A DNA stretch of 64,000 nt, taken from the IMG/VR virus record IMGVR_UViG_3300042868_011620, positions 68,552 to 132,551 of that record. One strand, given 5' to 3'. A model generated the notes under the pieces. The model did not search any database, was not told the DNA's origin, and saw only the letters and a list, made by a program, of their open reading frames with translations. Numbering within the stretch: the first letter of the stretch is position 1; each line of letters opens with the position of its first letter. The DNA is from a virus. A program made the position numbers and the translations under genes. Below are positions 1 to 34,587 of this stretch, one piece after another.

Positions 1-249
1 ACTGACAAATATCATCAAGCAATCGTCAAGCGCGATGAAGCTTGGCAAACGTGGAATGAATTTCATGCAGCTTGCCGCGAAGCTTACGTTGCCGCCACTA
101 ACGCACCTGATTTCACTTACGGTGAAACCCTGTGCTGGGAAAAATACGAGGCAACTTGTAAAAAGCGCGAGGACGCTTATGTTGAAGCGGTTGATGCTGA
201 TGAAGATGTTTGGAGAGCAAAAAACTGGGCAAACAATTACGGCGCATAA
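1..249 (+). CDS. hypothetical protein, 5'-truncated by window edge
   Basis: Frame 1 is open from base 1 (TDKYHQAIVKRDEAW...NNYGA) to TAA at 247-249, followed at once by the cassette terminator. Confidence 0.7.
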   Translation, partial: TDKYHQAIVKRDEAWQTWNEFHAACREAYVAATNAPDFTYGETLCWEKYEATCKKREDAYVEAVDADEDVWRAKNWANNYGA

Positions 250-261
250 CACTAGCAAGAC

Positions 262-288
262 AGCCCACCCTTCGGGGTGGGCTTTTTT
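262..288 (+). terminator. intrinsic terminator (cassette type)
   Basis: AGCCCACCC-TTCG-GGGTGGGC hairpin followed by T6. Confidence 0.9.
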
Positions 289-325
289 GTGCCTTGAAAA
301 AGTTCTCAAAAGAAGAAAAAAAAAC

Positions 326-353
326 TTGCGCTCTCTCCTTCCTCATGTATACT
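326..353 (+). promoter_or_regulatory. sigma70-like early promoter
   Basis: TTGCGC-N16-TATACT with A-rich upstream tract; ATG 8 nt downstream. Confidence 0.75.
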
Positions 354-361
354 AGGGAATC

Positions 362-565
362 ATGAACAAACCACTTAAAGCTAGTGACGCCGAGGACTAT
401 CGCCGTATAATCGAAGTGCTAAAAAAACTTGTAGCTTTCGATGATCTTATGAATGACCCCACATGGGAGGATTCAGGAACTTACATGGGCGCTTATCATG
501 CCTACTATAAGGGGAATTTTGAAGTATGGAAAGAAGCTAGATCATTTCTACCCCAAGAAGCCTAG
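362..565 (+). CDS. hypothetical early protein
   Basis: 67-aa ORF between promoter and terminator. Confidence 0.8.
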   Translation: MNKPLKASDAEDYRRIIEVLKKLVAFDDLMNDPTWEDSGTYMGAYHAYYKGNFEVWKEARSFLPQEA

Positions 566-570
566 CAATT

Positions 571-597
571 AGCCCACCCTTCGGGGTGGGCTTTTTT
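571..597 (+). terminator. intrinsic terminator (cassette type)
   Basis: Same hairpin plus T6 as 262-288. Confidence 0.9.
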
Positions 598-616
598 GTG
601 TTAGAGAAAGGGGAGT

Positions 617-693
617 CATAAGTCGTTGACTGTCAACGACTTACGAGGCTGCGCCCCGCGTTTGCGTAACTCGTTGATTTTCAACGTGCTATC
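617..693. repeat. twin-palindrome element copy 1
   Basis: 29-bp dyad (consensus CGTAACTCGTTGA-N3-TCAACGAGTTACG), 19-bp GC-rich linker, second dyad. Confidence 0.9.
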
Positions 694-783
694 AATTCAC
701 CCCTCTCTATAACAACTCTCTGTCTCGCGATTGTCAAGCGAGAATTTCAGAAAAAGAAAATACCTAAAAACTCAAAAAACATC

Positions 784-811
784 TTGCGTTCATCTCATCA
801 TGAGGTATACT
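784..811 (+). promoter_or_regulatory. sigma70-like early promoter
   Basis: TTGCGT-N16-TATACT; ATG 8 nt downstream. Confidence 0.75.
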
Positions 812-819
812 AAGGAACA

Positions 820-975
820 ATGAAGCAAGCTTCCTCCCACGTTACTCTCCAGATTCACTTCGACTCTCTTGTTGTCAAGGTCAAGGTCAAGCGCAACGAT
901 GCCGCTATCAATTCCGCCGTTCACAAGGAAACTGTCAAGCGCAAAAATCTTCCAAACTTCTACACCTTTGCTTGA
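820..975 (+). CDS. small basic hypothetical protein (51 aa, not in ORF track)
   Basis: MKQASSHVTLQIHFDSLVVKVKVKRND...NFYTFA*; starts at the promoter-predicted position. Confidence 0.7.
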   Translation: MKQASSHVTLQIHFDSLVVKVKVKRNDAAINSAVHKETVKRKNLPNFYTFA

Positions 976-996
976 ATTTAAAGTCTTAAAAAACAC

Positions 997-1024
997 TTGC
1001 ATCTCTCCCATCACCTGCTACACT
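997..1024 (+). promoter_or_regulatory. sigma70-like early promoter
   Basis: TTGCAT-N16-TACACT; ATG 9 nt downstream. Confidence 0.7.
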
Positions 1025-1033
1025 AAAAACATC

Positions 1034-1456
1034 ATGAAACTGATCCTTCCTCTTTGCTCCTTCCTCGCCGTTGCCGCTTGCGTCTACACCCTGGACTTTC
1101 CCGCTACTAGCATCTTTTACGCTTTGTTAGTTCTCTGGGCAGTGACTGGCATTGCCCTGTCCATCATGATTCTAAACGCTCGCCTTCGCCGCAAGGCTAA
1201 GCAAGCAAAAATGTATGCCCACCTTGAAAAGCTGATTGTTGCTAGCAAAGGCAAATTCTTCTCTCTGAGCTTCACCTTGCCCAACGGCAAAAAACAAGTT
1301 ATCAATGGCAAAAATTTCTACTACTCTCTGCTGCGCCTCAACGAGCCTGTGCGCTACAAATTTGTTGATAGGAACCGCAAAGCTTTCACGCAGCTTAAAA
1401 GAGCCTCAAACGTTCGGTTCATCTGCGGCAAAGTGAACACTATGGTCGGCCACTAA
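1034..1456 (+). CDS. membrane-anchored paralog of 5654..5929 (KGKFFS-x-F...INGKN domain)
   Basis: Start moved to ATG 1034 after the promoter; two hydrophobic segments then KGKFFSLSFTLPNGKKQVINGKN...FICGK. Confidence 0.75.
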   Translation: MKLILPLCSFLAVAACVYTLDFPATSIFYALLVLWAVTGIALSIMILNARLRRKAKQAKMYAHLEKLIVASKGKFFSLSFTLPNGKKQVINGKNFYYSLLRLNEPVRYKFVDRNRKAFTQLKRASNVRFICGKVNTMVGH

Positions 1457-1469
1457 CACTAGCAAGACT

Positions 1470-1496
1470 AGCCCACCCTTCGGGGTGGGCTTTTTT
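1470..1496 (+). terminator. intrinsic terminator (cassette type)
   Basis: Same hairpin plus T6. Confidence 0.9.
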
Positions 1497-1515
1497 GTGT
1501 TAGCAAAGCGGGAGT

Positions 1516-1592
1516 CATAAGTCGTTGATTATCAACGAGTTACGAAGTTGCACCGCGCAGCCGCGTAAGTCGTTGATAATCAACGTGCTATC
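1516..1592. repeat. twin-palindrome element copy 2
   Basis: Dyads start at 1516 and 1564. Confidence 0.9.
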
Positions 1593-1635
1593 AATCTTTA
1601 AAAAGCATTTTAATTCTAAAAGAGTGAAAAAAAAC

Positions 1636-1663
1636 TTGCACTCTGCCGCTTCTGCTGTATAGT
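1636..1663 (+). promoter_or_regulatory. sigma70-like early promoter
   Basis: TTGCAC-N16-TATAGT; ATG 8 nt downstream. Confidence 0.8.
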
Positions 1664-1671
1664 GGTGGATC

Positions 1672-1908
1672 ATGAAGTCCTCCCATTCTTCCCCTCCCGT
1701 CTATCGTCAACTCGTTCGCTTTGCGCAGCACTTCTACTGTAGCAGCGATAAAACTGAAGTGTCCTCTTATCGGCAATATAGCAATGGTGATGTTGAACTC
1801 GAAGTTGTCCATTGTTCTGGCAGGCTATCACTCTACGATTCGGTTGCTTGGACTAATGACATCCTTGGGGTACTGGATGAACATGGCGAATCAGCACTCT
1901 GCTGGTAG
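1672..1908 (+). CDS. hypothetical early protein
   Basis: 78-aa ORF between promoter and terminator. Confidence 0.75.
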   Translation: MKSSHSSPPVYRQLVRFAQHFYCSSDKTEVSSYRQYSNGDVELEVVHCSGRLSLYDSVAWTNDILGVLDEHGESALCW

Positions 1909-1924
1909 CTAACACTAGCAAGAT

Positions 1925-1951
1925 AGCCCACCCTTTGGGGTGGGCTTTTTT
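1925..1951 (+). terminator. intrinsic terminator (cassette type)
   Basis: AGCCCACCC-TTTG-GGGTGGGC plus T6. Confidence 0.9.
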
Positions 1952-1970
1952 GTGGTCGTGAATAGACTTG

Positions 1971-2047
1971 CGTAACTCGTTGAGTATCAACGAGTTACGA
2001 GGTTGCACCGCGCAGCCGCGTAAGTCGTTGATAATCAACGTGCTATC
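1971..2047. repeat. twin-palindrome element copy 3
   Basis: Dyads start at 1971 and 2019. Confidence 0.9.
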
Positions 2048-2090
2048 AATCTTTAAAAAGCATTTTAATTCCAAAAGAGTAAAAAAAAAC

Positions 2091-2118
2091 TTGCACTCTG
2101 CCGCTTCTGACGTATAGT
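2091..2118 (+). promoter_or_regulatory. sigma70-like early promoter
   Basis: TTGCAC-N16-TATAGT; near-identical to 1636-1663. Confidence 0.8.
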
Positions 2119-2126
2119 AATGGATC

Positions 2127-2411
2127 ATGAAGTCTCTCTCTTCTCTCTCTCCTACTCAAGCCATTATCATCCGCTTTCTCTGCAATCTGTGGAAGCGTAA
2201 TCACGCTCAAGTCAAACTTGCCAGAATCAACTCAGTCAAGGCCCATTCTGGTCTTGCCACAAATCGCCTCTTAGATATGTTAGACGCTGAACTGACAGCG
2301 GCAGAAACTCGCCGCAACATTGCCTTTCATGAATTGATGAATTTTGTCGATGAAATCGGATTGGACGATTCGGAAGTTGTTGACTTGTTAGACCCTAAAC
2401 TGAGTCGCTAA
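2127..2411 (+). CDS. hypothetical early protein
   Basis: 94-aa ORF between promoter and terminator. Confidence 0.8.
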   Translation: MKSLSSLSPTQAIIIRFLCNLWKRNHAQVKLARINSVKAHSGLATNRLLDMLDAELTAAETRRNIAFHELMNFVDEIGLDDSEVVDLLDPKLSR

Positions 2412-2417
2412 CAACTT

Positions 2418-2444
2418 AGCTCACTCGAAAGAGTGGGCTTTTTT
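2418..2444 (+). terminator. intrinsic terminator
   Basis: AGCTCACTC-GAAA-GAGTGGGC plus T6. Confidence 0.85.
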
Positions 2445-2463
2445 GTGGTCGCGAATAGACATG

Positions 2464-2540
2464 CGTAACTCGTTGATTATCAACAGGTTACGAGGTTGCA
2501 CCGCGCAGCGCCGTAACTCGTTGATTATCAACAACTTATG
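2464..2540. repeat. twin-palindrome element copy 4
   Basis: Dyads start at 2464 and 2512. Confidence 0.9.
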
Positions 2541-2589
2541 AACGCCCTCTTCTCATCCATCGATCCCAGACTCTCTATTTAGCACTTTG

Positions 2590-2648
2590 CTATTTGCAAC
2601 TCTCCTATTTGCAACTCTCCTATTTGCAACTCTTTCACTTGCAACTCC
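2590..2648 (+). repeat. 15-bp tandem repeat CTATTTGCAACTCTC (about 3-4 copies)
   Basis: Seen directly; the same TTTGCAA(C/G)T core recurs at 8211-8325. Confidence 0.8.
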
Positions 2649-2650
2649 TC

Positions 2651-2679
2651 TTGACAAGAGAAAAATTCTCGCGTAAGAT
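2651..2679 (+). promoter_or_regulatory. sigma70-like promoter
   Basis: TTGACA-N17-TAAGAT; ATG 8 nt downstream. Confidence 0.75.
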
Positions 2680-2687
2680 GAAGTCCT

Positions 2688-2885
2688 ATGAACCAAATAG
2701 AACAAGCCCTCTTTTATCGCGACGGACTGTCTGTAGCCGAAGCGGAATTCTTTGTTAGAGAAGCTCGCGCCCGCGTATGGGATGGCGAAAGTCCTGAAAA
2801 AATTCTACAAGACGAATTCTTTCTTGAACCAGAATATGCTATCGACTTGATCGGCTCCCAATCTTTTACCGCAATTGATGAATAA
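2688..2885 (+). CDS. hypothetical protein
   Basis: 65-aa acidic ORF after the promoter. Confidence 0.75.
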   Translation: MNQIEQALFYRDGLSVAEAEFFVREARARVWDGESPEKILQDEFFLEPEYAIDLIGSQSFTAIDE

Positions 2886-2935
2886 TCTCTTGACTCTCGC
2901 CCAAAATAATGTATTTTAAATCTCCACTACACCTT

Positions 2936-3112
2936 ATGAAAAAACTCCTCTTCCTTCTCAACAAAACCTTTTTCCCCGCATCTAAAGAAATCGAAGAATG
3001 GTTTCGCGCTGGGGATCAACCAGTCTATGGCGCGAAAGTCTTTTCTCAAAAATCTTGGATGGAAAAACAAATCGAAGAATCGATGCGCAAAAAATCCCTT
3101 GGACTTCACTAA
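2936..3112 (+). CDS. hypothetical protein
   Basis: MKKLLFLLNK...; start placed downstream of a TTGACT-N16-TATTTT motif. Confidence 0.6.
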   Translation: MKKLLFLLNKTFFPASKEIEEWFRAGDQPVYGAKVFSQKSWMEKQIEESMRKKSLGLH

Positions 3113-3138
3113 TCTCACCTTTGAACAATACAAATCAA

Positions 3139-3327
3139 ATGGACAAACCTTCAAACGAAATCATGGCAATCATTTGTAGCTTAGCCGCCAATGCTTTGCA
3201 GCAAAACAAAAATTGGGAAGATGCGATTGAAACGCACGGCTACATGGCAGAAATGGAATACTGCAACAAAGAAAAGGAGAGCCTCAAGCTTCTTGACGAA
3301 TGGATCGACCAAGTCGAAGCTGAATAA
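3139..3327 (+). CDS. hypothetical protein
   Basis: MDKPSNEIMA...QVEAE; ends just before the terminator. Confidence 0.65.
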   Translation: MDKPSNEIMAIICSLAANALQQNKNWEDAIETHGYMAEMEYCNKEKESLKLLDEWIDQVEAE

Positions 3328-3342
3328 GATCCTAACGCTACT

Positions 3343-3368
3343 AGCCCACTCTTCGGAGTGGGCTTTTT
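3343..3368 (+). terminator. intrinsic terminator
   Basis: AGCCCACTC-TTCG-GAGTGGGC plus T5 (compensatory change relative to the other copies). Confidence 0.9.
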
Positions 3369-3378
3369 ACTGCTCATC

Positions 3379-3455
3379 GCTAAACTGTTGATTATCAAGG
3401 ACTTACAGCGCTGCGTGGCCCGCCCGCGTAACTCGTTGATAATCAACGAGTTATC
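3379..3455. repeat. twin-palindrome element copy 5 (first dyad degenerate)
   Basis: Dyads start at 3379 and 3427. Confidence 0.85.
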
Positions 3456-3546
3456 AATTCACACCATCTTATAACAATTGTTGCGCCCGCCATTGTCAAC
3501 CGCGAATTCAAGAAAAAAAATAATCACATCAAATTCAAAATAAAAG

Positions 3547-3574
3547 TTGCGTTCTCCAGTTCCTCGCCTATAGT
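3547..3574 (+). promoter_or_regulatory. sigma70-like early promoter
   Basis: TTGCGT-N16-TATAGT. Confidence 0.75.
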
Positions 3575-3619
3575 CTTTTTAGCTGCACGTTGCAGTTCTT
3601 CACACTAACTAACTACACT

Positions 3620-4378
3620 ATGTCCCTCCTCCTTGCCAAAAACGTCGTTTCCCGCGAAGCTCTGTCCCGCGTCCCCACTCCTGATGCGGTGGATCGTTTT
3701 CATCCCATTGCCCATGGTGAACTTGCTGATGCAACTCGCCTTGCCATTTCCAACGCTGGTTTGGAAATCCTCGAAGAGGAACACGCTCTTGCTCGCGGCG
3801 GCTTGCGCTACTTTGGCGGGTTCGCTTTGCGCGGTGCTGGAATTGATAGCGCTGACCGCAACATCGTGCTGGGCCTCCGCAACGCTCACGATAAAACGTT
3901 TGCCGCCAGCATCTGCGTTGGCAACCGCATGATCGTTTGTGACAACCTGTGCTTTGCTAGCGACATCAAGCTGGCCCGCCGTCACACCACCAACATCATG
4001 AACGACATTCCTCGCGTTCTTGCTAGTGCAGTGTCCCGCGTGGTGAGTCACTGGAACGACATGGGCAAGCGCATCAAAGCCTATCAAGAAACCGTGATCG
4101 GTGACGCCACCGCTTCGGACCTGCTGGTGAAGCTGGTGGATAGCAAAGCCTTCCCCGCCCGCGACATTTACAACGCGATTCTGGAGTTCCGCGCTCCCCG
4201 CCATCCTGAGTTTGCTGGCAACTCTCTGTGGAGCCTTTACAACTCTGTGACCGAGAATCTCAAGAACGGAGACTTGACCAAGCTCCCCGCCCGCACCATG
4301 GTGATGCAAAGCGTGTTTGACCGCGTGGCGCATCATGAAAGCATCATCGAAATCGATGCTGAAATCCTCGTCGCCTAA
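3620..4378 (+). CDS. DUF932-like phage protein
   Basis: LGLRNAHDK...VGNRMIVCDNL...RRHT and SLWSLYNSVTE motifs typical of the DUF932 family. Confidence 0.75.
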   Translation: MSLLLAKNVVSREALSRVPTPDAVDRFHPIAHGELADATRLAISNAGLEILEEEHALARGGLRYFGGFALRGAGIDSADRNIVLGLRNAHDKTFAASICVGNRMIVCDNLCFASDIKLARRHTTNIMNDIPRVLASAVSRVVSHWNDMGKRIKAYQETVIGDATASDLLVKLVDSKAFPARDIYNAILEFRAPRHPEFAGNSLWSLYNSVTENLKNGDLTKLPARTMVMQSVFDRVAHHESIIEIDAEILVA

Positions 4379-4389
4379 CCGCTAGCGCA

Positions 4390-4423
4390 AGCCCCGCAAT
4401 CCTAACCGATTGCGGGGTTTTTT
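4390..4423 (+). terminator. intrinsic terminator
   Basis: GCCCCGCAATC...GATTGCGGGGT plus T-tract. Confidence 0.85.
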
Positions 4424-4442
4424 GCGTCTACTCTCAGAGCTT

Positions 4443-4519
4443 CATAACTCGTTGAGTATCAACGAGTTACGGGGCTGCGCCCCGCGTTCGCGTAACTCGT
4501 TGATTATCAACGACTTACG
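4443..4519. repeat. twin-palindrome element copy 6
   Basis: Dyads start at 4443 and 4491. Confidence 0.9.
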
Positions 4520-4609
4520 ACTGCGCCTCTCTTTATAACAACAACTCGTTCCGCCTTTGTCAACCGCGTTTTTCAAGAAAAATAAAATGCTTTAAAATGA
4601 TTTAAAATG

Positions 4610-4637
4610 TTGCAATCCTTTTTCCCCGTGCTATAGT
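4610..4637 (+). promoter_or_regulatory. sigma70-like early promoter
   Basis: TTGCAA-N16-TATAGT; ATG 6 nt downstream. Confidence 0.8.
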
Positions 4638-4643
4638 TTGGCC

Positions 4644-5330
4644 ATGCAGCTACTCTCTAAAAACAATACGAAGATCATCAAGGGGCAAAAACTCAAGGTG
4701 ATGACATGGGGACTCTCTCTGGTCCCTAACACAATGAACGGCAAGATCAACCTTTGCCCCTTTGCTAGTGATGGGTGCATTTTTGGTTGCTTGGAAACCG
4801 CTGGTCGCGGCGTCTTTGAAAACGTAAGGGCAGCGCGAATGAAACGCACAATGCTGTTTGTTGACCACCAAAAAACTTTCTTGATTCAATTGGAGTCGGA
4901 AATTAATGCTGCGCAGAAAAGCGCCAAGCGGGCAGGAATGAAGTGTGCCATTCGGCTGAATGTGCTTTCCGATGTGGGATGGCACAAATTGCTAGACTTT
5001 TCCAAGTGGCCCGACATCCAGTTCTACGACTACACCCCTAACACTAACAGAATGGTGCAGTACCTCCAAGGCAAACTCCCTAGCAATTACCACCTCACCT
5101 TCAGCCGCAAGGAAAACAACCAGACTGCTGTGGAGTTGATCGCGGCCATGGGCGGCAACATCGCCGTCGTGTTCGATGAACTCCCTAACACTTACCTTGG
5201 CAAAACTGTTGTCAACGGTGATGACACCGACGTTCGCTTTCTGGACGGTCAAAACGTTATCGTGGGACTGAAAGCCAAGGGTCGCGCCAGAAAAGATTCC
5301 TCTGGGTTTGTGGTCAAAGCACTAGCATAA
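4644..5330 (+). CDS. Gp88-family phage protein (Cys-cluster protein)
   Basis: NLCPFASDGCIFGCL, RLNVLSDV, FYDYT, YHLTFS, GDDTDVRFLD and GLKAKG motifs. Confidence 0.75.
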   Translation: MQLLSKNNTKIIKGQKLKVMTWGLSLVPNTMNGKINLCPFASDGCIFGCLETAGRGVFENVRAARMKRTMLFVDHQKTFLIQLESEINAAQKSAKRAGMKCAIRLNVLSDVGWHKLLDFSKWPDIQFYDYTPNTNRMVQYLQGKLPSNYHLTFSRKENNQTAVELIAAMGGNIAVVFDELPNTYLGKTVVNGDDTDVRFLDGQNVIVGLKAKGRARKDSSGFVVKALA

Positions 5331-5405
5331 ATTATGATCACCACCCTTTCCATCATGCTGATCCTCACCTTAATATCCCTAACCAAAAAGAAAGCCTAGC
5401 AAACT

Positions 5406-5432
5406 AGCCCACCCTTCGGGGTGGGCCTTTTT
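5406..5432 (+). terminator. intrinsic terminator (cassette type)
   Basis: Same hairpin plus T-tract. Confidence 0.9.
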
Positions 5433-5451
5433 GTGTTAGCGAAGGGGGAGT

Positions 5452-5528
5452 CATAAGTCGTTGAGTATCAACGAGTTACGCGGCTGCGCCCCGCGCCCGC
5501 GTAACCCCTTGAAAATCAACGAGTTACG
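5452..5528. repeat. twin-palindrome element copy 7
   Basis: Dyads start at 5452 and 5500. Confidence 0.9.
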
Positions 5529-5617
5529 AGGTTCCATGCGCCTATAACAATTTCTTTTCCTACGCTTGTCAACCGAGAATGTGGAGGAAAATAATTGCTT
5601 TAAAATCAAAAGAAATG

Positions 5618-5645
5618 TTGCACTCTGCCAAGGATGGGCTACTAT
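5618..5645 (+). promoter_or_regulatory. sigma70-like early promoter
   Basis: TTGCAC-N16-TACTAT; ATG 8 nt downstream. Confidence 0.75.
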
Positions 5646-5653
5646 AGTGAACT

Positions 5654-5929
5654 ATGAACAACCAACTTGACGATCTCATTGCTGCCACTAAAGGCAAGTT
5701 CTTCAGTATCACCTTCACTAAGAAGGACGGCACCTCCCGCACCATCAATGGCAAGAACCGATATGATCGGTTAGTGAAGGGCGTTGGCTCTCCCGCAACC
5801 GTCGCTTTGAAAGAAGGCGGTTACACTAGCTTTGTGAACCGTAACCGTGATGGCTGGGTTTCTGCACACAAGGAAAACGTGCTGACTTTCAAGTGTGGCA
5901 AGATTCGAGAAACTTTCGTGATGATCTGA
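5654..5929 (+). CDS. small phage protein, possible SH3/Sm-like fold
   Basis: FFSITFTKKDGTSRTINGK motif; paralog of the C-terminal part of 1034..1456. Confidence 0.7.
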   Translation: MNNQLDDLIAATKGKFFSITFTKKDGTSRTINGKNRYDRLVKGVGSPATVALKEGGYTSFVNRNRDGWVSAHKENVLTFKCGKIRETFVMI

Positions 5930-5961
5930 GACAGTCTCTTTAACCCATACCTCATAACAAT

Positions 5962-6165
5962 ATGACCGTTTATCAAATGTTGATTCGCAAAGCTCATCTT
6001 TCAGATGGATACAGGGCCGCTGCTGCCTTGAATAAAGAATCTTACAGGCGTCTTCGCGAAGCAAAGCTTCTTTATGGCCACAACACTCTCAAAAGCCATA
6101 AGCACTTTGAGAAAGTCAAGATGCAAATGGCAAGAGAAGCTACAGCAGTTATTCGCTCCCTTTAA
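5962..6165 (+). CDS. hypothetical protein, paralog of 6184..6450
   Basis: Shared MTxYQxLIxKAHLxD N-terminus and REAxxxIRxL C-terminus. Confidence 0.75.
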   Translation: MTVYQMLIRKAHLSDGYRAAAALNKESYRRLREAKLLYGHNTLKSHKHFEKVKMQMAREATAVIRSL

Positions 6166-6183
6166 CCCACAACCAACAACAAC

Positions 6184-6450
6184 ATGACCACCTATCAATT
6201 CCTGATTAAAAAAGCTCACCTCAACGATTGTGAGGAAGACTCTAATTCCATCGTGGCAGAAAAACATTGGGATATCGCGACAGATGAGCGCAACCATCGC
6301 ATTCAAACTGGTATGGCAATTTTCTGCTATCTTTCTCATGGTGGCAGTGAAATGTTGCAATCGCCTGCTGCTATCAACTTCAAGCGGAAAATCGAACGCG
6401 ACCTGAACAGGGAAGCTGCCGAAGCGATTCGCGCTCTGTATCAAGAATAA
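6184..6450 (+). CDS. hypothetical protein, paralog of 5962..6165
   Basis: As above; ends before the terminator. Confidence 0.75.
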   Translation: MTTYQFLIKKAHLNDCEEDSNSIVAEKHWDIATDERNHRIQTGMAIFCYLSHGGSEMLQSPAAINFKRKIERDLNREAAEAIRALYQE

Positions 6451-6456
6451 CTAATC

Positions 6457-6483
6457 AGCCCACCCTTCGGGGTGGGCTTTTTT
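6457..6483 (+). terminator. intrinsic terminator (cassette type)
   Basis: Same hairpin plus T6. Confidence 0.9.
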
Positions 6484-6502
6484 GTGTTAGCGAAGAGGGA
6501 GT

Positions 6503-6579
6503 TGTAACTCGTTGAGTTTCAACGACTTATGGCGCTGCACGGCGCAGCCGCGTAACCACTTGATAATCAACGTGCTATC
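6503..6579. repeat. twin-palindrome element copy 8
   Basis: Dyads start at 6503 and 6551. Confidence 0.85.
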
Positions 6580-6614
6580 AATGTTTAAAAAAGCATTTTA
6601 ATTGAAAAAAAGTG

Positions 6615-6642
6615 TTGCACATCCTCCGTTCTACTGTATAAT
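6615..6642 (+). promoter_or_regulatory. sigma70-like early promoter
   Basis: TTGCAC-N16-TATAAT; ATG 6 nt downstream. Confidence 0.8.
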
Positions 6643-6648
6643 ATTCCC

Positions 6649-6996
6649 ATGGACACTCGCTGTTACTTCAACCTACATAAGAGAAAGATTTCTGTTCAGA
6701 AAAAAATCAATGGAGTTTGGAAGGTGGTTCGCCATGCTGACTCTGTCGCTTTGGACAACGCTACCTTTCAAGTGTCCCAAGCTGGACGGGAGCGCGTCTT
6801 GCAACAGAAGCGCAAAAATGTTCATGCTTACATCTGTGGCACTGAATCAGGAAGTTTCGACTACTACAAGAAGCTCCGACAAGTCAACTACAATCCCTAT
6901 CTCTTCGGTTACTTTTTCGAGAAGGAGTCTGGAGATCCAGTGTACAAAGCCCCCTCTGTTTTAATCTGCGGAAAAAAAATCATCATCACCCACTAA
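6649..6996 (+). CDS. conserved phage hypothetical protein
   Basis: YFNLHK...FQVSQAGRERVL...RKNVHAY...YNPY pattern recalled from phage proteins. Confidence 0.75.
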   Translation: MDTRCYFNLHKRKISVQKKINGVWKVVRHADSVALDNATFQVSQAGRERVLQQKRKNVHAYICGTESGSFDYYKKLRQVNYNPYLFGYFFEKESGDPVYKAPSVLICGKKIIITH

Positions 6997-7112
6997 TATG
7001 TCAGCCAAAAAAAACAAAATGCCCAACCCGTTCATCTTTCTGCTGGTATACACTTTGTCAGTGGGCAGCATCCTGATGATTCTTATGAAACTCTTTCCTC
7101 GCGGCCTTTAAT

Positions 7113-7346
7113 ATGACTAGTTCCAACATCATCGTCACTGCTTTAAATACCACTGTCGATCCCATTCTTGACAAGATCATCATGGACGCGGCAGATTTAG
7201 AGAATAGTTTTAATTCTTATCAACAAGCTGTAGAGTTTTCCTCTACAAGATGCACATACGAGCAAGCAATGATTCTTTCCATCGCTTATAAAAGGCTCGC
7301 CCAAACCATGGAAGACATTGCCTCACACATCAAACCAAAAATATGA
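7113..7346 (+). CDS. hypothetical protein
   Basis: 77-aa ORF with ATGA overlap to the next gene. Confidence 0.7.
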   Translation: MTSSNIIVTALNTTVDPILDKIIMDAADLENSFNSYQQAVEFSSTRCTYEQAMILSIAYKRLAQTMEDIASHIKPKI

Positions 7347-7642
7347 GTCTCGACAAAGCAATCCAATACGGCAAAGAAAAGCGCGTACAGTATCGCCGCA
7401 GCTTAGCCTTTGACCGCAGTTGCCGCAACCATGGCAACTGCGGTTACTGTGAGAGTAACCGAACGATTCAATCTCAGAAAGAATTGCGTCGAATCGAATC
7501 ACAAGAGCATGACCTTGATGATCCATGCTATCTTGATGATTTAATCAATGGGGAAATCACTGTTGAAGAATGGAATAAAAGAGTTGACGCTCACGATGAT
7601 TTACACCATGACTGGAGCGCTTATGTGCAATACATTAGGTAA
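7343..7642 (+). CDS. conserved phage hypothetical protein (CRNHGxCxxC)
   Basis: GKEKR...DRSCRNHGNCGYCESNR, possible Zn-binding motif. Confidence 0.75.
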   Translation: MSLDKAIQYGKEKRVQYRRSLAFDRSCRNHGNCGYCESNRTIQSQKELRRIESQEHDLDDPCYLDDLINGEITVEEWNKRVDAHDDLHHDWSAYVQYIR

Positions 7643-7714
7643 CTCGTTGAATATCAACGAGTTACGAGGCTGCGCCCCGCGTTCGCGTAAGTCGTTGAAT
7701 ATCAACAGGTTACG
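7638..7714. repeat. twin-palindrome element copy 9
   Basis: Dyads start at 7638 and 7686; supplies the TAA stop of the upstream ORF. Confidence 0.9.
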
Positions 7715-7749
7715 AGGATTTAAAAAAGAATTTAAATTCAAAAAAACTC

Positions 7750-7777
7750 TTGCATCTTGCTCGCCCTGCACTATAGT
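7750..7777 (+). promoter_or_regulatory. sigma70-like early promoter
   Basis: TTGCAT-N16-TATAGT; ATG 8 nt downstream. Confidence 0.8.
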
Positions 7778-7785
7778 CTTTTATT

Positions 7786-8067
7786 ATGATTAAACTTGCT
7801 GTACACGATGGAACCCTGCATCTCTATTCTGAAGACTTCAATGGCGACGACCTTGGCGACTTTTTTGGAACTGAAGAATTTGTGGAGCTACTTACTAACG
7901 ATACCTGCGCCAGTGTCACGTATGACAAAGGAGTGTTTGATAAACAGATGTTAGCAGGCATCCTTTACGATTACATCGAATGTGGTTGGATGAAAAATGT
8001 TAGGGAGGTGGAGCTGCCAGATGGTCGCACGTTCCATATTGAATTCAACCTTGAATTCTCTGCGTAA
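7786..8067 (+). CDS. hypothetical acidic protein
   Basis: 93-aa ORF after the promoter. Confidence 0.75.
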   Translation: MIKLAVHDGTLHLYSEDFNGDDLGDFFGTEEFVELLTNDTCASVTYDKGVFDKQMLAGILYDYIECGWMKNVREVELPDGRTFHIEFNLEFSA

Positions 8068-8080
8068 CAAGAGACGCCCT

Positions 8081-8157
8081 TGTAACCCGTTGAATATCAA
8101 CGAGTTACGAGAGCGGGGGGCGCAGCCGCGTAACCCCTTGATTATCAACGAGTTACG
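8081..8157. repeat. twin-palindrome element copy 10
   Basis: Dyads start at 8081 and 8129. Confidence 0.9.
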
Positions 8158-8204
8158 ACTGGCACTGTGCTGGATTTTATGTTAGCATCACTCTTATTAA
8201 GGGG

Positions 8205-8325
8205 TCGCTTATTTGCAACTTTCTCGTTTGCAAGTCTTTATTAAGAGTTCCCTTATTTGCAAGTTTCTCGTTTGCAAGCTCTTATTTGTGTTAGTCTTAT
8301 TTGCAAGTTTCTCGATTGTAAGTGT
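8205..8325 (+). repeat. cluster of TTTGCAA(C/G)T direct repeats
   Basis: About 5-6 copies at the point where gene orientation switches. Confidence 0.7.
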
Positions 8326-8452
8326 CCGATTGATGGCTTTGAACCACCTTCTCCAAAATTACTTGCTCCCTCTAGTTATTCACATTGCGCGTCCGCACGA
8401 AGGGTAATTGTGGCGCTTTAGACCAAAAATAAGCTAATCGGAAATTGTTTTG

Positions 8453-9046
8453 TTAATCATCCCAAGGGCAGATCTGCCATCCTTCCAGTTTGAAGGAGGT
8501 TCCAGTCGGTGGGCTGGAGCGCACCCACTCTTCCATTTTTTCCTTAACATGTTCTGGGATAGAGTCGCAGTCTCCTTGGAAACCCCATTCATCGTAGTTG
8601 TCTCCAGGGGGATGGTCGCTCCATCCTGCCTCATCTTGAATGTAAGTTTCTACCCATGCTCCTTGTTCGTTGCGGATGAGAAAGCCGCGATACTCACGGT
8701 TGTTTTTTTGATCTTCGCGAGCCAAGTCTGCCGCATTGTCCAGAGTGTTTTGAATGTTAATCAAAGTCTCCTCGTCCGTTTCTCCACGACGCGCTAACAA
8801 CTCTGTGGTGCCAGGAGTATCAAAGTCATCAGTGACTGAAACTGCACACACAAACGACTGTCCAGTGCAAATGATGCGCGAAGTGAGAAGTTCTTTCTTG
8901 CAAGCTCCCCAGTCAGTATCAAAAGGCAGTCCAGAAGCGATTGCCTGCATAATTTCCTCGCGTTTATCGTCATAAAAATCGGATGCGCCCCACTTGGTCA
9001 TGTCGCCCTTGTTGAACTGACTAGAGAATTCAAAATCTTCGTTCAT
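8453..9046 (-). CDS. hypothetical acidic protein
   Basis: 197-aa ORF downstream of the SprT-like gene. Confidence 0.75.
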   Translation of the reverse strand: MNEDFEFSSQFNKGDMTKWGASDFYDDKREEIMQAIASGLPFDTDWGACKKELLTSRIICTGQSFVCAVSVTDDFDTPGTTELLARRGETDEETLINIQNTLDNAADLAREDQKNNREYRGFLIRNEQGAWVETYIQDEAGWSDHPPGDNYDEWGFQGDCDSIPEHVKEKMEEWVRSSPPTGTSFKLEGWQICPWDD

Positions 9047-9081
9047 AGCTTTATTGGTGTTGGTGTTTTGTTTTAATGAGA

Positions 9082-9549
9082 TTATGCAGGAATGATCTGG
9101 AGTTTGCCAAGAGTCTCTTTACGCTTGCCAGTAACAAAGCGCAAGCCAACTTCTCTGTGCCACTTGGGCAAGCGGTGATAAGAGCCAAGCTTTTCTCCAC
9201 TCTCAGAGTTGATCATGTAATACTTGGGCTTGACGCGCACTGCCTCGCTAGTCATGTACTGCTTAGGCTCAGCACCAATCTGCACACAGATGTCTCTCCA
9301 GATTTTGCCGTGACCAACCTCGCCATGTTTGAGGTAAGCAAGAGCGTGAGCAATCTCATGCAGGATGGTATCGTGAACTTGAGCAACGCTGTTGCACTCG
9401 GTCAAGACAGAGGAGAGGTGAATTTCTTTGAGCTTGAAATAACAAGTTCCGAACACGCGCTTTTTACGAGTGAACTGGAAAGTCCAATCGGACAAACCAT
9501 AGTGGTTCATGAGATACAAGGCGTGATTTTTGGCAAGTGCTGCGTTCAT
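9082..9549 (-). CDS. SprT-like zinc metalloprotease
   Basis: HDTILHEIAHAL...HGKIW motif; upstream TTGACA-N16-TACTGT promoter. Confidence 0.85.
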   Translation of the reverse strand: MNAALAKNHALYLMNHYGLSDWTFQFTRKKRVFGTCYFKLKEIHLSSVLTECNSVAQVHDTILHEIAHALAYLKHGEVGHGKIWRDICVQIGAEPKQYMTSEAVRVKPKYYMINSESGEKLGSYHRLPKWHREVGLRFVTGKRKETLGKLQIIPA

Positions 9550-9601
9550 GTAGGTACAGTAGCAGAGGAGTTGAGGATGTCAAATAAAAATGACTAAAAA
9601 T

Positions 9602-9676
9602 TGGTGGATCTACTTGGAATCGAACCAAGATTAAAAGCTTAGAAGGCTCTTGTCTTATCCATTAGACGATAGATCC
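9602..9676 (-). tRNA. trnR: tRNA-Arg(UCU)
   Basis: Cloverleaf GGATCTA...CT-TCT-AA...GGTTCGATTCC...ACCA. Confidence 0.9.
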
Positions 9677-9831
9677 AAAGGTTTATTTGCGTTTAAATAC
9701 AGATGGTCTCTGCATAGCAATGATAGTCAAGATGAGAAGATTTACAAGCAGAATATAAGGTTGGTCCATATTATTTTTTGGTTTGGGGCAGAGAGCCACT
9801 ACACTCCCTGCCCCGTTATGTACCACTACTC

Positions 9832-10737
9832 CTACAGACTAGCAAGCACATTCAAGCCCTTGCTAGTAATTTTTCTAGTCACATCAATTCTAATGAAGTT
9901 TTTCTTCAGCAAGAAACTTTCAACATCGCGTTGCAAAGTACTGCGACTCAAACCAGTAACTGCACTAAGCATAGTCAAGGTGCAATCGCCTCTTTCTTTC
10001 AAGATGTTTAACACTTCGATTTCAGAATTGCTCAAACCATTCTTTTCAATGTTCACCAAGCTGCAAAGATCTTCCCAAGAACTAGAGTCAAAGAAACTCT
10101 GATTGTTTTTATTACAGTACCGCAAGATTTCATTTGCTCTGAGAACTGCACTGCGAGCATTGCCCCGAACGCTATCAGCAATGGTTTCGAGAACATCATC
10201 GCGAAACTCTACCCAGGAAGTTGCCACTTTGATGATCTGCGCCATCTCCCCACTACTGTATGGTTTAAAATCAATGATTGTGAATCGATCCTTCAATGGG
10301 GCGAACACTTTCTCTTGATCAGTAGTAGCAAACAAATAAGTTTGTTTGTCAAAGTTGAACTCTGCAATCTCATCATTAAAGCTGAACTCTCTCACTGCTG
10401 GGCCTTGAGTGTTAAACACAGTGAGGAAAGTCATCATTAAACTTTTGGGCAAAGCATGACACTCATCAAACAAAACTGTAACAGCTTTATTCATAATGTG
10501 CGGCACAAAGATTTGCTCGAAGAACTGATTAGAGTCTTTGATGGTGGAACAGTTAATTTCCATCATTGGTTTCTTCAGCGCCTTGGCAAAGCCTCGGCAG
10601 AATTCAGTCTTGCCCGAACCCTTCGCGCCATTCATCATGATGAAAGGAATGCGAGTGTTGGAGGTTTGACTGTCCAGATAAAAACCAAGTTGTCGTTTAA
10701 TGTGATCCTGCCCAATGAGAGAAGAGAAGTTTTCCAT
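9832..10737 (-). CDS. ruvB: RuvB-like AAA+ ATPase
   Basis: LIGQDHIK, Walker A GAKGSGKT, Walker B LFDECH, ATTD, PLKDRF, RGNAR and C-terminal winged-helix-like VESFLL. Confidence 0.75.
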   Translation of the reverse strand: MENFSSLIGQDHIKRQLGFYLDSQTSNTRIPFIMMNGAKGSGKTEFCRGFAKALKKPMMEINCSTIKDSNQFFEQIFVPHIMNKAVTVLFDECHALPKSLMMTFLTVFNTQGPAVREFSFNDEIAEFNFDKQTYLFATTDQEKVFAPLKDRFTIIDFKPYSSGEMAQIIKVATSWVEFRDDVLETIADSVRGNARSAVLRANEILRYCNKNNQSFFDSSSWEDLCSLVNIEKNGLSNSEIEVLNILKERGDCTLTMLSAVTGLSRSTLQRDVESFLLKKNFIRIDVTRKITSKGLNVLASL

Positions 10738-10787
10738 TGTAGTGTAGTGTATAGTGGAAAGGAAGGTAGCCGCACTGCGGAGGGTTG

Positions 10788-11048
10788 TCAAGCGTTTTCT
10801 AGTGGCGCATACTCATCAAAGTTTGTCACGCTAAAAGAAATCTTGCTTTCTGGTTCTTCAGACTCAACAACAGTTTTAACGAGGTTTACTTTTTGTTCAA
10901 TGCTGATGTGATTTTCGCGCAACCACATGGTAGAAACTTTCACCACTGCATTCTCTCCAACCATAGAGATTAAGTCTTGCAGTTTAATTTTGGCAAAGCT
11001 GTTGCTACCAGGAGGACGACCACGACGTTTAGGGGATTCAGTGTTCAT
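10788..11048 (-). CDS. AT-hook-containing small protein
   Basis: PKRRGRPPGS motif near the N-terminus. Confidence 0.7.
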   Translation of the reverse strand: MNTESPKRRGRPPGSNSFAKIKLQDLISMVGENAVVKVSTMWLRENHISIEQKVNLVKTVVESEEPESKISFSVTNFDEYAPLENA

Positions 11049-11227
11049 AGAGTATATATAGTATAGTAGTTTGATGTTTGTCAAGAACAGAGTGTTCGAG
11101 AAGGGAAAGTACAGCATACATGCCGCGAGTCAAGGATTTTTTTCACATTTAAATCTTTTTTTAAAAGCAAGGAGTTTTTTAGTGTAAACTCTTTTTCGGC
11201 GCGAAAAGCTGTGGGTTTGCAGACTTC

Positions 11228-11292
11228 TTTTATTTGACAAAAAGTCGTTCGTAATTAGACCCTGTTTATTTGGCAAAAAGTCGTTCGTAATT
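11228..11292 (+). repeat. direct repeat TTTATTTG(A/G)CAAAAAGTCGTTCGTAATT x2
   Basis: Two near-identical 28-mers; degenerate third copy at about 11414-11441. Confidence 0.75.
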
Positions 11293-11368
11293 TGGTACAT
11301 CATGTCGGACTCGAACCGACACTAGACAGATTTTAAGTCTGTTGCCTCTGCCATTGGGCTAATGATGC
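11293..11368 (-). tRNA. trnL: tRNA-Leu(UAA), short variable loop
   Basis: ACAGA-CT-TAA-AA-TCTGT anticodon arm, GGTTCGAGTCC T-arm, CCA end. Confidence 0.85.
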
Positions 11369-11441
11369 ATAGTGTATACTAAAGAGAGTTCAGCTCTTGT
11401 CAATGGGATTTTGTTTATTTGTCCCACTCTCTTTCGTAATT

Positions 11442-11517
11442 TGGTGGACGCACAGGGGCTCGAACCCTGGACCAAGAAATTATGAGTTTCACGCTCTAAC
11501 CGCTGAGCTATACGTCC
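11442..11517 (-). tRNA. tRNA-CAU (Ile2 or elongator Met)
   Basis: CT-CAT-AA loop, G1-C72 pair (not initiator), CCA end. Confidence 0.85.
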
Positions 11518-11659
11518 AAAGTGCTTAAAAAAGTTCTTGTTCTCTATCCTGCAAGTATTGTGTAGCGTTGAGGACTTGGTTAGTGTTAAAAAATGTTTGG
11601 ATCTTCTTTAGAAGTTTTGCCATACACTATTTTACACTGGGTGGGAGAGTTGTCCACCT

Positions 11660-11866
11660 TTACCATGTGTCATTTTTGACACACTCTATTGCGCCAAACG
11701 TTTCTGGCTCAGTTATTTTTAATTCATAAATTAAATTCTCCATCATTTTAAACGTTTCCATTCTAGTCTCGGCGCATCCTGAAAGCAAGTGCTCATCAAG
11801 CAACTCAAAAATGCGGTGAGTAAAGTTTTTTCCGCCAATTGCGCTGTAGATGTTGTGCTTTTTCAT
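11660..11866 (-). CDS. hypothetical protein
   Basis: 68-aa ORF with upstream TTGACG-N16-TATAGT. Confidence 0.65.
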   Translation of the reverse strand: MKKHNIYSAIGGKNFTHRIFELLDEHLLSGCAETRMETFKMMENLIYELKITEPETFGAIECVKNDTW

Positions 11867-11929
11867 GAGCTTATAATACTATATAGTATATATTACAAGC
11901 GTCAAGGAGTTTTGTGATGTTTTTTCAGG

Positions 11930-34525: not shown

Positions 34526-34587
34526 ATTGTTGTTTGTTTGGGTTTCTTGATAAGAACTACTCATTATTATCAAAAATTATTTAAAAG

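Follow-up and report, generated by a model that had tools for sequence, protein, structure and literature searches.

Results

The ten elements of the window

The stretch of viral DNA analysed here (the window, 64,000 nucleotides, positions 68,552 to 132,551 of IMG/VR record IMGVR_UViG_3300042868_011620) belongs, by domain search, to a lake-water virus with long-tail genes, namely tail protein L, Phage-tail_3 and a giant fibre bearing BppL_N. It carries ten tRNA genes. The phage was found in 24 DNA sequencing runs, all from lake water, with no RNA run among the holders listed. The first 8 kb of the window, the cassette region, have a G+C content of 43-49%, versus 30-42% in the rest. This region holds ten copies of a 77-bp element made of two 29-bp palindromic sequences (dyads), d1 and d2, of which d2 lies on the side of the downstream promoter.

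The ten start positions given in the original prediction, which had been made from the letters of the window, are all correct (617, 1516, 1971, 2464, 3379, 4443, 5452, 6503, 7638 and 8081), as is the 48-bp offset from d1 to d2, found in 10 of 10 elements with a GC-rich linker of 19 nt between the dyads. In a repeat search the ten copies align without gaps over 79 nt and are 75-100% identical to the reference copy. Scanning the 64-kb window with the 29-bp consensus gave 15 matches at three or fewer mismatches (none in 100 shuffles), 18 at up to six, and all 20 dyads at up to eight; even at eight mismatches no dyad was found in the remaining 56 kb outside 617-8157. Five dyads are degenerate: d1 of the element at 3379, with 8 mismatches, and d2 of those at 617, 1516, 1971 and 6503, in which the right arm is replaced. 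What follows the dyads is either the GC linker or a mixed A/T stretch. The linker sequence differs between copies; G prevails in its left part and C in its right part, and it is partly self-complementary.

A cassette order of promoter, open reading frame (ORF), terminator and element had also been proposed, and it holds: eight of the ten elements lie behind a hairpin followed by a T-run, and nine precede a predicted promoter of the pattern TTGnnn-N16/17-TAnnnT (a pattern only). Seven of the terminator-like hairpins came from a scan and the eighth (4391-4423) was read directly from the sequence. The elements at 7638 and 8081 lack the terminator, and the one at 8081 also lacks the promoter. The distances from the end of d2 to the -35 box are 35, 35, 43, 43, 89, 90, 90, 91 and 110 nt. 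The features are, in order along the window:

571..600, + strand: terminator-like hairpin and T-run before element 1 (scan)
617..693, + strand: element 1; d1 617-645, linker 646-664, d2 665-693; 90 nt from the end of d2 to the -35 box
784..811, + strand: sigma-70-type promoter pattern TTGCGT-16-TATACT, 8 nt before ATG 820
1470..1499, + strand: terminator-like hairpin and T-run before element 2 (scan)
1516..1592, + strand: element 2; d1 1516-1544, d2 1564-1592; 43 nt to the -35 box
1636..1663, + strand: promoter pattern TTGCAC-16-TATAGT, 8 nt before ATG 1672
1925..1954, + strand: terminator-like hairpin and T-run before element 3 (scan)
1971..2047, + strand: element 3; d1 1971-1999 (exact consensus), d2 2019-2047; 43 nt to the -35 box
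2091..2118, + strand: promoter pattern TTGCAC-16-TATAGT, 8 nt before ATG 2127
2418..2447, + strand: terminator-like hairpin and T-run before element 4 (scan)
2464..2540, + strand: element 4; d1 2464-2492, d2 2512-2540; 110 nt to the -35 box; TATTTGCAAC repeats lie between the two
2651..2679, + strand: promoter pattern TTGACA-17-TAAGAT, 8 nt before ATG 2688
3343..3372, + strand: terminator-like hairpin and T-run before element 5 (scan)
3379..3455, + strand: element 5; degenerate d1 3379-3407, d2 3427-3455; 91 nt to the -35 box
3547..3574, + strand: promoter pattern TTGCGT-16-TATAGT, 45 nt before ATG 3620 (DUF932 gene, Pfam)
4391..4423, + strand: terminator-like hairpin (10-bp stem) and T-run before element 6 (read from the sequence; not in the scan list)
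4443..4519, + strand: element 6; d1 4443-4471, d2 4491-4519; 90 nt to the -35 box
4610..4637, + strand: promoter pattern TTGCAA-16-TATAGT, 6 nt before ATG 4644 (GP88 gene, Pfam)
5407..5435, + strand: terminator-like hairpin and T-run before element 7 (scan)
5452..5528, + strand: element 7; d1 5452-5480, d2 5500-5528; 89 nt to the -35 box
5618..5645, + strand: promoter pattern TTGCAC-16-TACTAT, 8 nt before ATG 5654
6457..6486, + strand: terminator-like hairpin and T-run before element 8 (scan)
6503..6579, + strand: element 8; d1 6503-6531, degenerate d2 6551-6579; 35 nt to the -35 box
6615..6642, + strand: promoter pattern TTGCAC-16-TATAAT, 6 nt before ATG 6649 (L5 gp82-like gene, Pfam)
7638..7714, + strand: element 9; d1 7638-7666 overlaps the stop codon of ORF 7343-7642, d2 7686-7714; no upstream terminator; 35 nt to the -35 box
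7750..7777, + strand: promoter pattern TTGCAT-16-TATAGT, 8 nt before ATG 7786
8081..8157, + strand: element 10; d1 8081-8109, d2 8129-8157; last in the array, no promoter pattern downstream

A family with lineage-specific spacing

An exact-pattern scan of viral contigs collected at least 116 loci, in which dyads were then counted at six or fewer mismatches. These loci contain at least 829 dyads, and 791 of the 829 have a partner 27-62 bp away. Among the loci listed, 922 matches were found in 986 kb of real sequence and none in shuffled copies, and the nearest-neighbour offsets were 50 (259 cases), 51 (34), 48 (23), 52 (15), 58 (11), 34 (9) and 42 (5). The offset is lineage-specific, being constant within a lineage and different between lineages, with 50 the commonest value beside 48, 51 and 52. 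In the window and four related genomes, referred to as G002 to G005, it is as follows:

Window: 48 (10 of 10)
G002: 48 (14 of 14)
G003: 52 (5 of 6)
G004: 50 (7 of 7)
G005: mostly 51

The offset of 48 that had been called invariant is therefore so in the lineage of the window but not elsewhere, where it is 50, 51, 52 or 58. Variation of the spacing in homologous loci, which the original prediction had regarded as an argument against itself, occurs between lineages but not within one.

The dyad consensus is identical in the window and in G002, G003, G004 and G005, while the proteins that these relatives share with the window are only 28-69% identical, with the exception of those of G002, which is syntenic with the window. 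Elements in the four related genomes are restricted to one or two stretches of 3-11 kb each, apart from one stray site in G002, and the number of sites per genome ranges from 10 to 36. DUF932, GP88, a RuvB/clamp-loader-like AAA+ protein and an AT-hook protein are common to all five genomes and are encoded inside or beside the array. The 147.7-kb record G004 (loci L249-L256) contains two diverged copies, at about 11-21 kb and 130-146 kb, of a block with the RuvB-like, AT-hook, GP88, DUF932, gp82-like and WYL-like genes, together with two element clusters; this duplication may reflect long terminal redundancy or assembly from mixed strains.

Near and distant DNA searches against deposited phage genomes gave no useful match; the nearest deposited record, G001, is a 36-kb fragment in which the motif is absent. 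An Rfam covariance scan of positions 1-12000 of the window at E values up to 1 placed no family on any element and returned only tRNAs and weak chance matches. Searches of the main texts of the literature by dyad sequence and by keywords (phage intergenic palindromes, operators) found no published description of the element.

Association with promoters and helical phasing

The elements were oriented by the pattern TTGNNN-N16-19-TANNNT-N4-12-ATG, a promoter followed by a start codon, within 220 bp. ORF coverage did not discriminate the orientation, and runs of T or A were confounded by the promoter A-tract. Among the loci listed, 257 of the 367 unique twin elements with enough flanking sequence have the pattern on exactly one side, against a chance expectation, estimated by hand, of about 3% per side. 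The gap between the -10 box and the ATG is 6 nt in 154 of these 257. In the window the -10 box ends 6-8 nt before the ATG for eight of the nine element-linked promoters, the DUF932 gene with its 45 nt being the ninth. Since such gaps leave no space for a Shine-Dalgarno sequence, the cassette genes look leaderless or nearly so. Promoter patterns that are free of elements, at 326 and 997, also end 6-8 nt before the ATG.

The distance from the end of d2 to the -35 box is periodic, with peaks at 14-15, 24-25, 35-36, 46-47, 67-70, 79-80, 89-91, 99-100 and 110-111 nt. The spectral power at 10.5-10.75 bp is 34 for all 257 elements and 24 when one element per spacer-sequence cluster is retained (n=164), and none of 2000 null sets, made by jittering every distance by at most 8 nt, reached this periodicity. 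When the elements are divided by offset class (48, 50 and 51), the phases measured from d2 agree (4.5, 5.4 and 5.6) while those measured from d1 do not (0.0, 2.9 and 4.1), which identifies the promoter-proximal d2 as the phased dyad. A helical phase relative to the promoter, as an operator would have, is thus present. By arithmetic from the gaps, and with an assumed start point, the centre of d2 falls at about -63, -74, -85, -96, -118, -129 and -139.

The terminator is not part of this rule. It is found upstream of 18 of 23 elements in the lineage of the window versus 27 of 178 in the offset-50 class, with 6 of 257 in the downstream control. The order terminator-element-promoter is a habit of one lineage; the order element-promoter is the rule of the family.

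Variation within the dyads and the linker

The logo of 827 dyads from the loci listed is nearly invariant at TAA-S-TC-N-TTGA-N3-TCAA-N-GA-S-TTA and variable in its 3-nt centre, that is, a conserved sequence with the dyad symmetry expected of a double-stranded operator. Where dyads depart from the consensus, the two arms are still complementary in only 51 of 223 cases at positions 6/24, 35 of 204 at 9/21 and 13 of 127 at 12/18. In 150 promoter-oriented elements of the offset-50 class, positions 6/24 are CG in 73, GC in 20 and unpaired in 56. Most of the variation destroys base pairing, which argues for a duplex site rather than a selected hairpin.

As a single strand, the element could form either three hairpins or one long hairpin. 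The pairing of the long hairpin shows no excess of double changes (273 vs 263 in shuffles, 120/500), and no coupling was found between the two dyads in the covariation test. The linker is 59.6% paired with many double changes, for example 42 CG and 36 GC at positions 34/46. We read the element as a duplex protein site whose core may make a minor structural contribution. Two protein dimers or a cruciform had been suggested for it. The fixed double palindrome, the conserved sequence, the pairing-breaking variation and the phase of d2 would fit two symmetric protein units, whereas the loss of pairing disfavours the cruciform.

Gene content at the elements

Elements had been expected to mark the boundaries at which gene content changes, and they do. 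Gene adjacency is kept in 0.14 of the other locus groups across element junctions (n=172) versus 0.40 across element-free junctions (n=536; Mann-Whitney p = 2e-15), a contrast confounded by the fact that element-free junctions are mostly inside operons. Elements border some of the cassette-sized insertions and deletions: at least three such differences between the window and G002 have an element on either side, and between loci L019 and L097 there is a clean 746-bp insertion/deletion with all four breakpoints 14 bp from an element. L086, at 92-95% identity the relative closest to the window, shows four events, placed either 6-55 bp or more than 250 bp away from an element. Its junctions lie anywhere in the terminator-element-promoter module, and those read in detail are at a shared block of stop codon and terminator and not in the dyads. 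Contigs from three lake runs lack 7111-7352, away from the elements, ORF 7113-7346 being replaced by 19 nt. In lake run X22, 7796-8088 is replaced, from 10 nt after the ATG into d1 of element 10, and 320 other nucleotides stand in place of ORF 7786-8067. Apparent joints between elements in contigs of four runs (sides of 24-42 nt) were not counted, as they come from other phages with the same element.

The breakpoint test covered 62 unique events with 231 coordinates in relatives of at least 88% identity. Breakpoints are not enriched inside the element (5.2% vs 6.4% in the null) and are weakly enriched at its edges (15.2% vs 8.7% within 15 bp, 27% vs 22% within 100 bp); about 70% lie more than 100 bp from an element. 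Tyrosine recombinase (PF00589), serine recombinase (PF00239), Y1 transposase (PF01797) and ParB were all absent from the relatives G001-G005, two of which are at least 90% complete and three incomplete; in the PF00589 search 14 of 14 control genomes were positive. The scanned ORFs of the window contained no tyrosine recombinase either. These results do not bear out a recombination site as the primary function. Our conclusion is that the repeats serve as portable homology, with cassette exchange as a consequence and not the selected function.

Candidate binding proteins and host

The DNA-linked proteins found in the window are the RuvB/clamp-loader-like AAA+ protein, which has a winged helix, and the unannotated AT-hook protein encoded near the array at 10788-11117, which has no named relatives in the protein atlas. 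Of the array proteins, DUF932, encoded at 3620-4378, is conserved best. No solved relative of DUF932 or GP88 was found by sequence, the AlphaFold2 model of DUF932 (pLDDT 78.7) had no Foldseek match at E values up to 0.001, and a literature search found no functional study of DUF932. Two array proteins, encoded at 1034-1456 (C-terminal part) and 5654-5929, share a domain with the motif KGKFFS..F....G..R.INGKN, which matches phrog_2267 and has a weak match, below the cut-off, to WYL_2 / Sm-like SH3 (E = 0.0012). The minus-strand ORF 34022-34573 contains the outer-membrane beta-barrel domain OMP_b-brl (E = 4.5e-7); the presence of this domain in a phage ORF hints at a diderm host.

Related palindromes in bacteria

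The 25-bp core of the dyad also occurs in bacterial genomes. A Microscillaceae genome, G009, has 149 copies at one or no mismatch (loci L169, L192, L196, L233 and others) of a palindrome identical to the phage dyad core at 23 of 25 positions. About 38 of the 149 lie inside a unit with terminal inverted repeats that resembles a miniature inverted-repeat transposable element (MITE); others are followed by T-runs and look like terminators. In Saprospiraceae genomes the core is found within another repeat family of about 120-180 bp; in Fibrobacter genomes there are 3-7 copies, whose match extends to the outer CG pairs. Many of the single bacterial matches, flanked by A/T runs, may by our estimate be chance occurrences among generic terminator hairpins. 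It had been foreseen that the element might turn out to be a host operator or a repeat of the repetitive extragenic palindromic (REP) type. A similar palindrome is indeed dispersed in G009, but the phage copies are confined and promoter-phased.

Other repeats and rejected candidates

The module is duplicated in the array over its entire length, from the terminator across element and promoter up to ATGAAGTC: 1469-1697 and 1924-2152 (and 6456-6684) are 87% identical and are followed by unrelated ORFs. In the class with 90-nt gaps (694-783, 3456-3546, 4520-4609 and 5529-5617) the stretch between d2 and the -35 box has conserved TATAACAA and TTGTCAA(C/G)CG motifs, and the scan gives TTGTCA at 3493 and 5566 as a possible second -35 box. 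Another repeat family, (C/T)TATTTGCAA(C/G)T, occurs at 2575-2650 and 8194-8325. Directly before the TTGACA promoter at 2651 it forms three 15-bp steps; beyond the last element, at the point where the direction of transcription flips, it forms three 44-bp units. G002 has a homologous block. This family may be the site for another regulator.

A 34-nt repeat present three times at 11227-11445 has AAGTCGTT in common with the dyad. Its copies lie at the 3' ends of minus-strand tRNA-Leu and tRNA-Met genes and were dropped from the family as trailers of these genes. A CRISPR-like reading was rejected by eye: the would-be spacers are 19-23 nt long, GC-rich and self-complementary, and the units are solitary pairs. 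Hairpin promoters of the N4 type, brought to mind by the 3-nt loops, were also dropped, as the giant ORF at the end of the window has a baseplate domain and not a polymerase, and ordinary -35/-10 patterns are present.

Discussion

A proposed regulatory docking module

The analysis points to an element family that is real, widespread and apparently undescribed, probably a regulatory repeat of phages. Helical phasing together with variation that breaks pairing argues for a double-stranded protein site coupled to the promoter, and we put the probability at about 0.55 that each 77-bp element is a cis-regulatory protein-docking module of the promoter downstream. What has been observed directly is that the sequence is conserved, that the dyads come in a twin geometry and that the elements are associated with promoters and helically phased; from these observations we infer the mechanism, including the binding of a protein, its identity and the sign of regulation. 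A symmetric DNA-binding protein would sit on each 29-bp dyad, either as one dimer per dyad or through four heptad-type contacts (CGTAACT CGTTGAT / ATCAACG AGTTACG). As d2 keeps to one side of the helix with respect to the -35 box, RNA polymerase or the DNA wrapped upstream of it could be reached by the protein on d2 or by the bend that this protein makes. The d1 site, at its lineage-specific distance of 48-52 bp, may add cooperative binding across the GC-rich, weakly self-complementary core. As one site serves every cassette promoter, one protein could switch all the small-gene units together. Our best guess for the sign of regulation is a timed damping or shut-off of promoters that are intrinsically strong, with an A-tract, TTG and a near-consensus -10 box; the alternative would be activation by a bending protein. 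The repeats would at the same time provide about 80-230 bp of portable homology, so that gain, loss and swapping of cassettes at the modules might follow as a side effect.

Several observations weigh against this reading. The one-sided promoter pattern is missing for 110 of the 367 unique elements, two elements of the window (gap 43) are off phase, and the promoters and start points are sequence patterns only. As for the protein, no DNA-binding family was found among the small array genes (Pfam and PHROGs, 40 window proteins), and HU/IHF, ParB and WhiB families were absent from the relatives G001-G005, three of these records being incomplete. The best VIA-align matches of the DUF932 model, to the DNA-binding C-terminal domains of TnsE (Z 7.7) and T4 MotA (Z 5.8-6.0), are in the noise range. 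Lineages differ by as much as 4 bp in the offset between d1 and d2, a twist of about 137 degrees, which makes a rigid tetramer unlikely. There are also signs of structure, so that a hairpin or cruciform may contribute. The folding energy of single strands of the elements is -17.2 to -26.6 kcal/mol (z-scores of -3.8 to -7.6), and the linker forms 1381 Watson-Crick pairs in register versus 824-1035 when slid, with a minimum free energy of -7.71 vs -6.61 kcal/mol in shuffles (n=381). Minor coupling exists within the dyads, with odds ratios of 4.8 at 9/21 and 7.0 at 59/71.

Alternative explanations

The signs of structure just described are what would be expected if the elements acted as folded nucleic acid, that is, as cruciform or single-stranded DNA or as hairpins in read-through RNA, where three hairpins or one long hairpin might back up termination, stabilise 3' ends or serve as an RNase III site. 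The linker varies and yet keeps its partial self-complementarity, the coupling is inside the dyads and not between them, the similar palindromes of Bacteroidota genomes are often followed by T-runs in the manner of terminators, and, with a separate upstream terminator in only 54 of 257 elements, many elements may be transcribed. We nevertheless regard a folded form as improbable. Dyad variation mostly breaks pairing, so that it is the sequence and not merely the structure that is conserved; double changes in the long hairpin are not in excess; and the phase with the -35 box, at 10.5 bp, is a property of duplex DNA. Eight of the ten window elements stand behind a strong terminator, outside the transcription unit, Rfam has no match, and the GC hairpin with T-run of an intrinsic terminator is lacking: no T-run follows the phage dyads, the 6 of 257 of the downstream control being the only terminator-like patterns beyond d2. 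A similarly low probability attaches to the proposal that the elements are primarily recombination modules, either portable homology or recombinase sites, selected to shuffle the promoter-ORF-terminator cassettes. It would account for the adjacency values, confounded as they are by operons, and for the element-flanked differences between the window and G002 and between L019 and L097 and the replacement in X22. The positions of the breakpoints and of the L086 junctions and the absence of PF00589, PF00239 and PF01797 from the five relatives speak against it, and recombination leaves the helical phasing and the frozen sequence unexplained.

It is also possible, though on balance unlikely, that the dyads are docking sites for a protein of the host of the IHF/HU type, a specific form of the docking model, which would be used at time zero to wrap the upstream DNA and to boost or insulate the cassette promoters. 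The half-dyads carry TCAA-N4-TTA, the core of the published IHF consensus WATCAANNNNTTR, and the full 13-mer is present on at least one strand in 18 of the 20 window dyads. The d2 loops are biased to TAC or TAA (77 of 150), and this bias completes the consensus on the strand that points away from the promoter (125 vs 58 of 257). A recognised sequence that is frozen across diverged phages is as expected for a conserved host protein, bacterial genomes hold related palindromes, and helical phasing is typical of bend-dependent activation, as with IHF at lambda pL and Mu Pe and Fis at rrnB P1. In the relatives, however, the full consensus is found in only 99 of 257 distal (39%) and 162 of 257 proximal (63%) dyads, and G22 and A23, which fall within the N4 part of the consensus, are 92-93% conserved. 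A symmetric site with the geometry of the H' co-crystal would, we presume, have 1 nt between TTGA and TCAA and not 3. The promoters also look strong without help. Very improbable in our view is an origin as selfish repeats, similar to REP/REPIN or MITE sequences, that a host transposase has spread in the phage and that are simply tolerated in intergenic DNA. This idea draws on the copies in G009, with their unit of terminal inverted repeats, and on those in Saprospiraceae and Fibrobacter. The phage copies, on the other hand, are in one region, 95% paired at lineage-fixed offsets and promoter-phased, and no terminal repeats flank them. Hundreds of copies genome-wide, as in REP/REPIN families, are seen only in G009 and not in the phages. 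Nor is there a sign of the REP-RAYT link, a cognate Y1 transposase gene flanked by repeats: the gene is absent from the five phage records, and only 1 of 8 Y1-transposase loci from dyad-bearing bacterial genomes has a dyad (six or fewer mismatches) within about 1 kb.

Comparison with known systems

A docking module of this kind would work most like an upstream operator or activating site that is repeated at each promoter of a gene set, in a cassette landscape resembling that of the promoter-early stem-loop (PeSL) cassettes. Protein p4 of phage phi29 is a dimer that binds inverted repeats in paired sites upstream of the A2b, A2c and A3 promoters, on the face of RNA polymerase (about -71 and -82); it represses the strong early promoters and activates the weak one through the alpha C-terminal domain. 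Its sites differ from ours in sequence, are four in a single control region and belong to a known protein, whereas the phages studied here have one site for each gene unit, 10-36 in a genome. Class I CRP sites are centred at -61.5, -72.5, -82.5 and -92.5, and the upstream activating sites of Fis likewise lie at helical-turn intervals. The d2 centres at about -63, -74, -85 and -96 are on approximately the same face as the class I CRP sites. The differences are the GTTGA-N3-TCAAC within a 29-bp dyad, the obligatory second site and positions that extend to about -160.

Repeated operators are known in actinophages, such as the conserved inverted repeats of phiC31 and the stoperators of L5, asymmetric 13-mers bound by the immunity repressor. 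The ESAS of Cluster K mycobacteriophages (PMC3203893) are 17-bp imperfect inverted repeats with a variable spacer of 4-13 bp, which lie directly on translation-start-associated sequences and whose function that paper leaves unexplained. With all of these our element shares many copies of one conserved intergenic site tied to gene starts or promoters; it differs in having two 29-bp dyads 48-52 bp apart, located 14-180 bp upstream of the -35 box, and in that no integrase was found in the relatives. The enterobacterial REP/BIME (RIP) repeats contain IHF sites. The half-dyad TCAA-N4-TTA, the dispersed bacterial palindromes and the intergenic position behind terminators recall these repeats, but the full consensus is confined to the fractions of distal and proximal dyads given above, and extra conserved bases and a palindrome with a 3-nt centre set the element apart. 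In the attC sites of integrons it is the structure that is conserved and not the sequence, an adjacent IntI is needed and the cassettes are promoterless. Our elements are likewise imperfect palindromes at cassette boundaries; however, their sequence is conserved, nine of the ten cassettes have a promoter pattern of their own, and neither an adjacent IntI nor any tyrosine recombinase was found in the relatives.

The cassettes themselves are closest to the PeSL cassettes of the T4-type phages RB49 and phi1. Arbiol et al. 2010 (PMC2839356) describe small non-essential genes that lie in a hyperplastic region and are each provided with a stem-loop terminator and a strong sigma-70-like promoter. The regulatory unit consists of promoter and terminator only; the repeated units coincide with insertions, deletions and replacements between relatives, a precedent for a role in shuffling. 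The likeness extends in part to this coincidence, in that element-flanked insertions and deletions exist while breakpoints are only weakly enriched, and, judged by patterns, to the arrangement of promoter and stem-loop terminator around small ORFs, with 8 terminators and 9 promoters beside the 10 elements. In contrast to PeSLs, a separate twin palindrome of conserved sequence with a GC core stands here between terminator and promoter, in phase with the promoter, and the phages are long-tailed and not of the T4 type. The element lacks those defining features of integron attC, REP/RAYT, intrinsic terminators and Rfam families that were tested.

Implications

A bolder and rather doubtful extension of the docking model is that a conserved architectural protein of the host has the 29-bp palindrome as its address and would also recognise the related REP/MITE-like copies of Bacteroidota and Fibrobacter. 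Aquatic long-tailed phages, as a very abundant family, would have wired every accessory-gene promoter to this protein by means of the phased twin site with its supercoiling-sensitive GC core. The phage might in this way sense the state of the host nucleoid at DNA entry and fire or silence its cassettes together, and the unit would be a universal adaptor for new genes.

If the element is a regulatory docking module, whatever the protein, one short DNA address would control the fast-evolving small genes of very widespread uncultured aquatic phages, the class of genes in which functions for host takeover and anti-defence are usually found. The element would be an easy computational flag for gene units and promoters in metagenomes and a clean, testable example of regulation that depends on helical phase, in phages still beyond cultivation. 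It could serve as bait for the regulator and, through the regulator, perhaps for the host. The change of gene content at its boundaries would then be explained without a dedicated recombinase.

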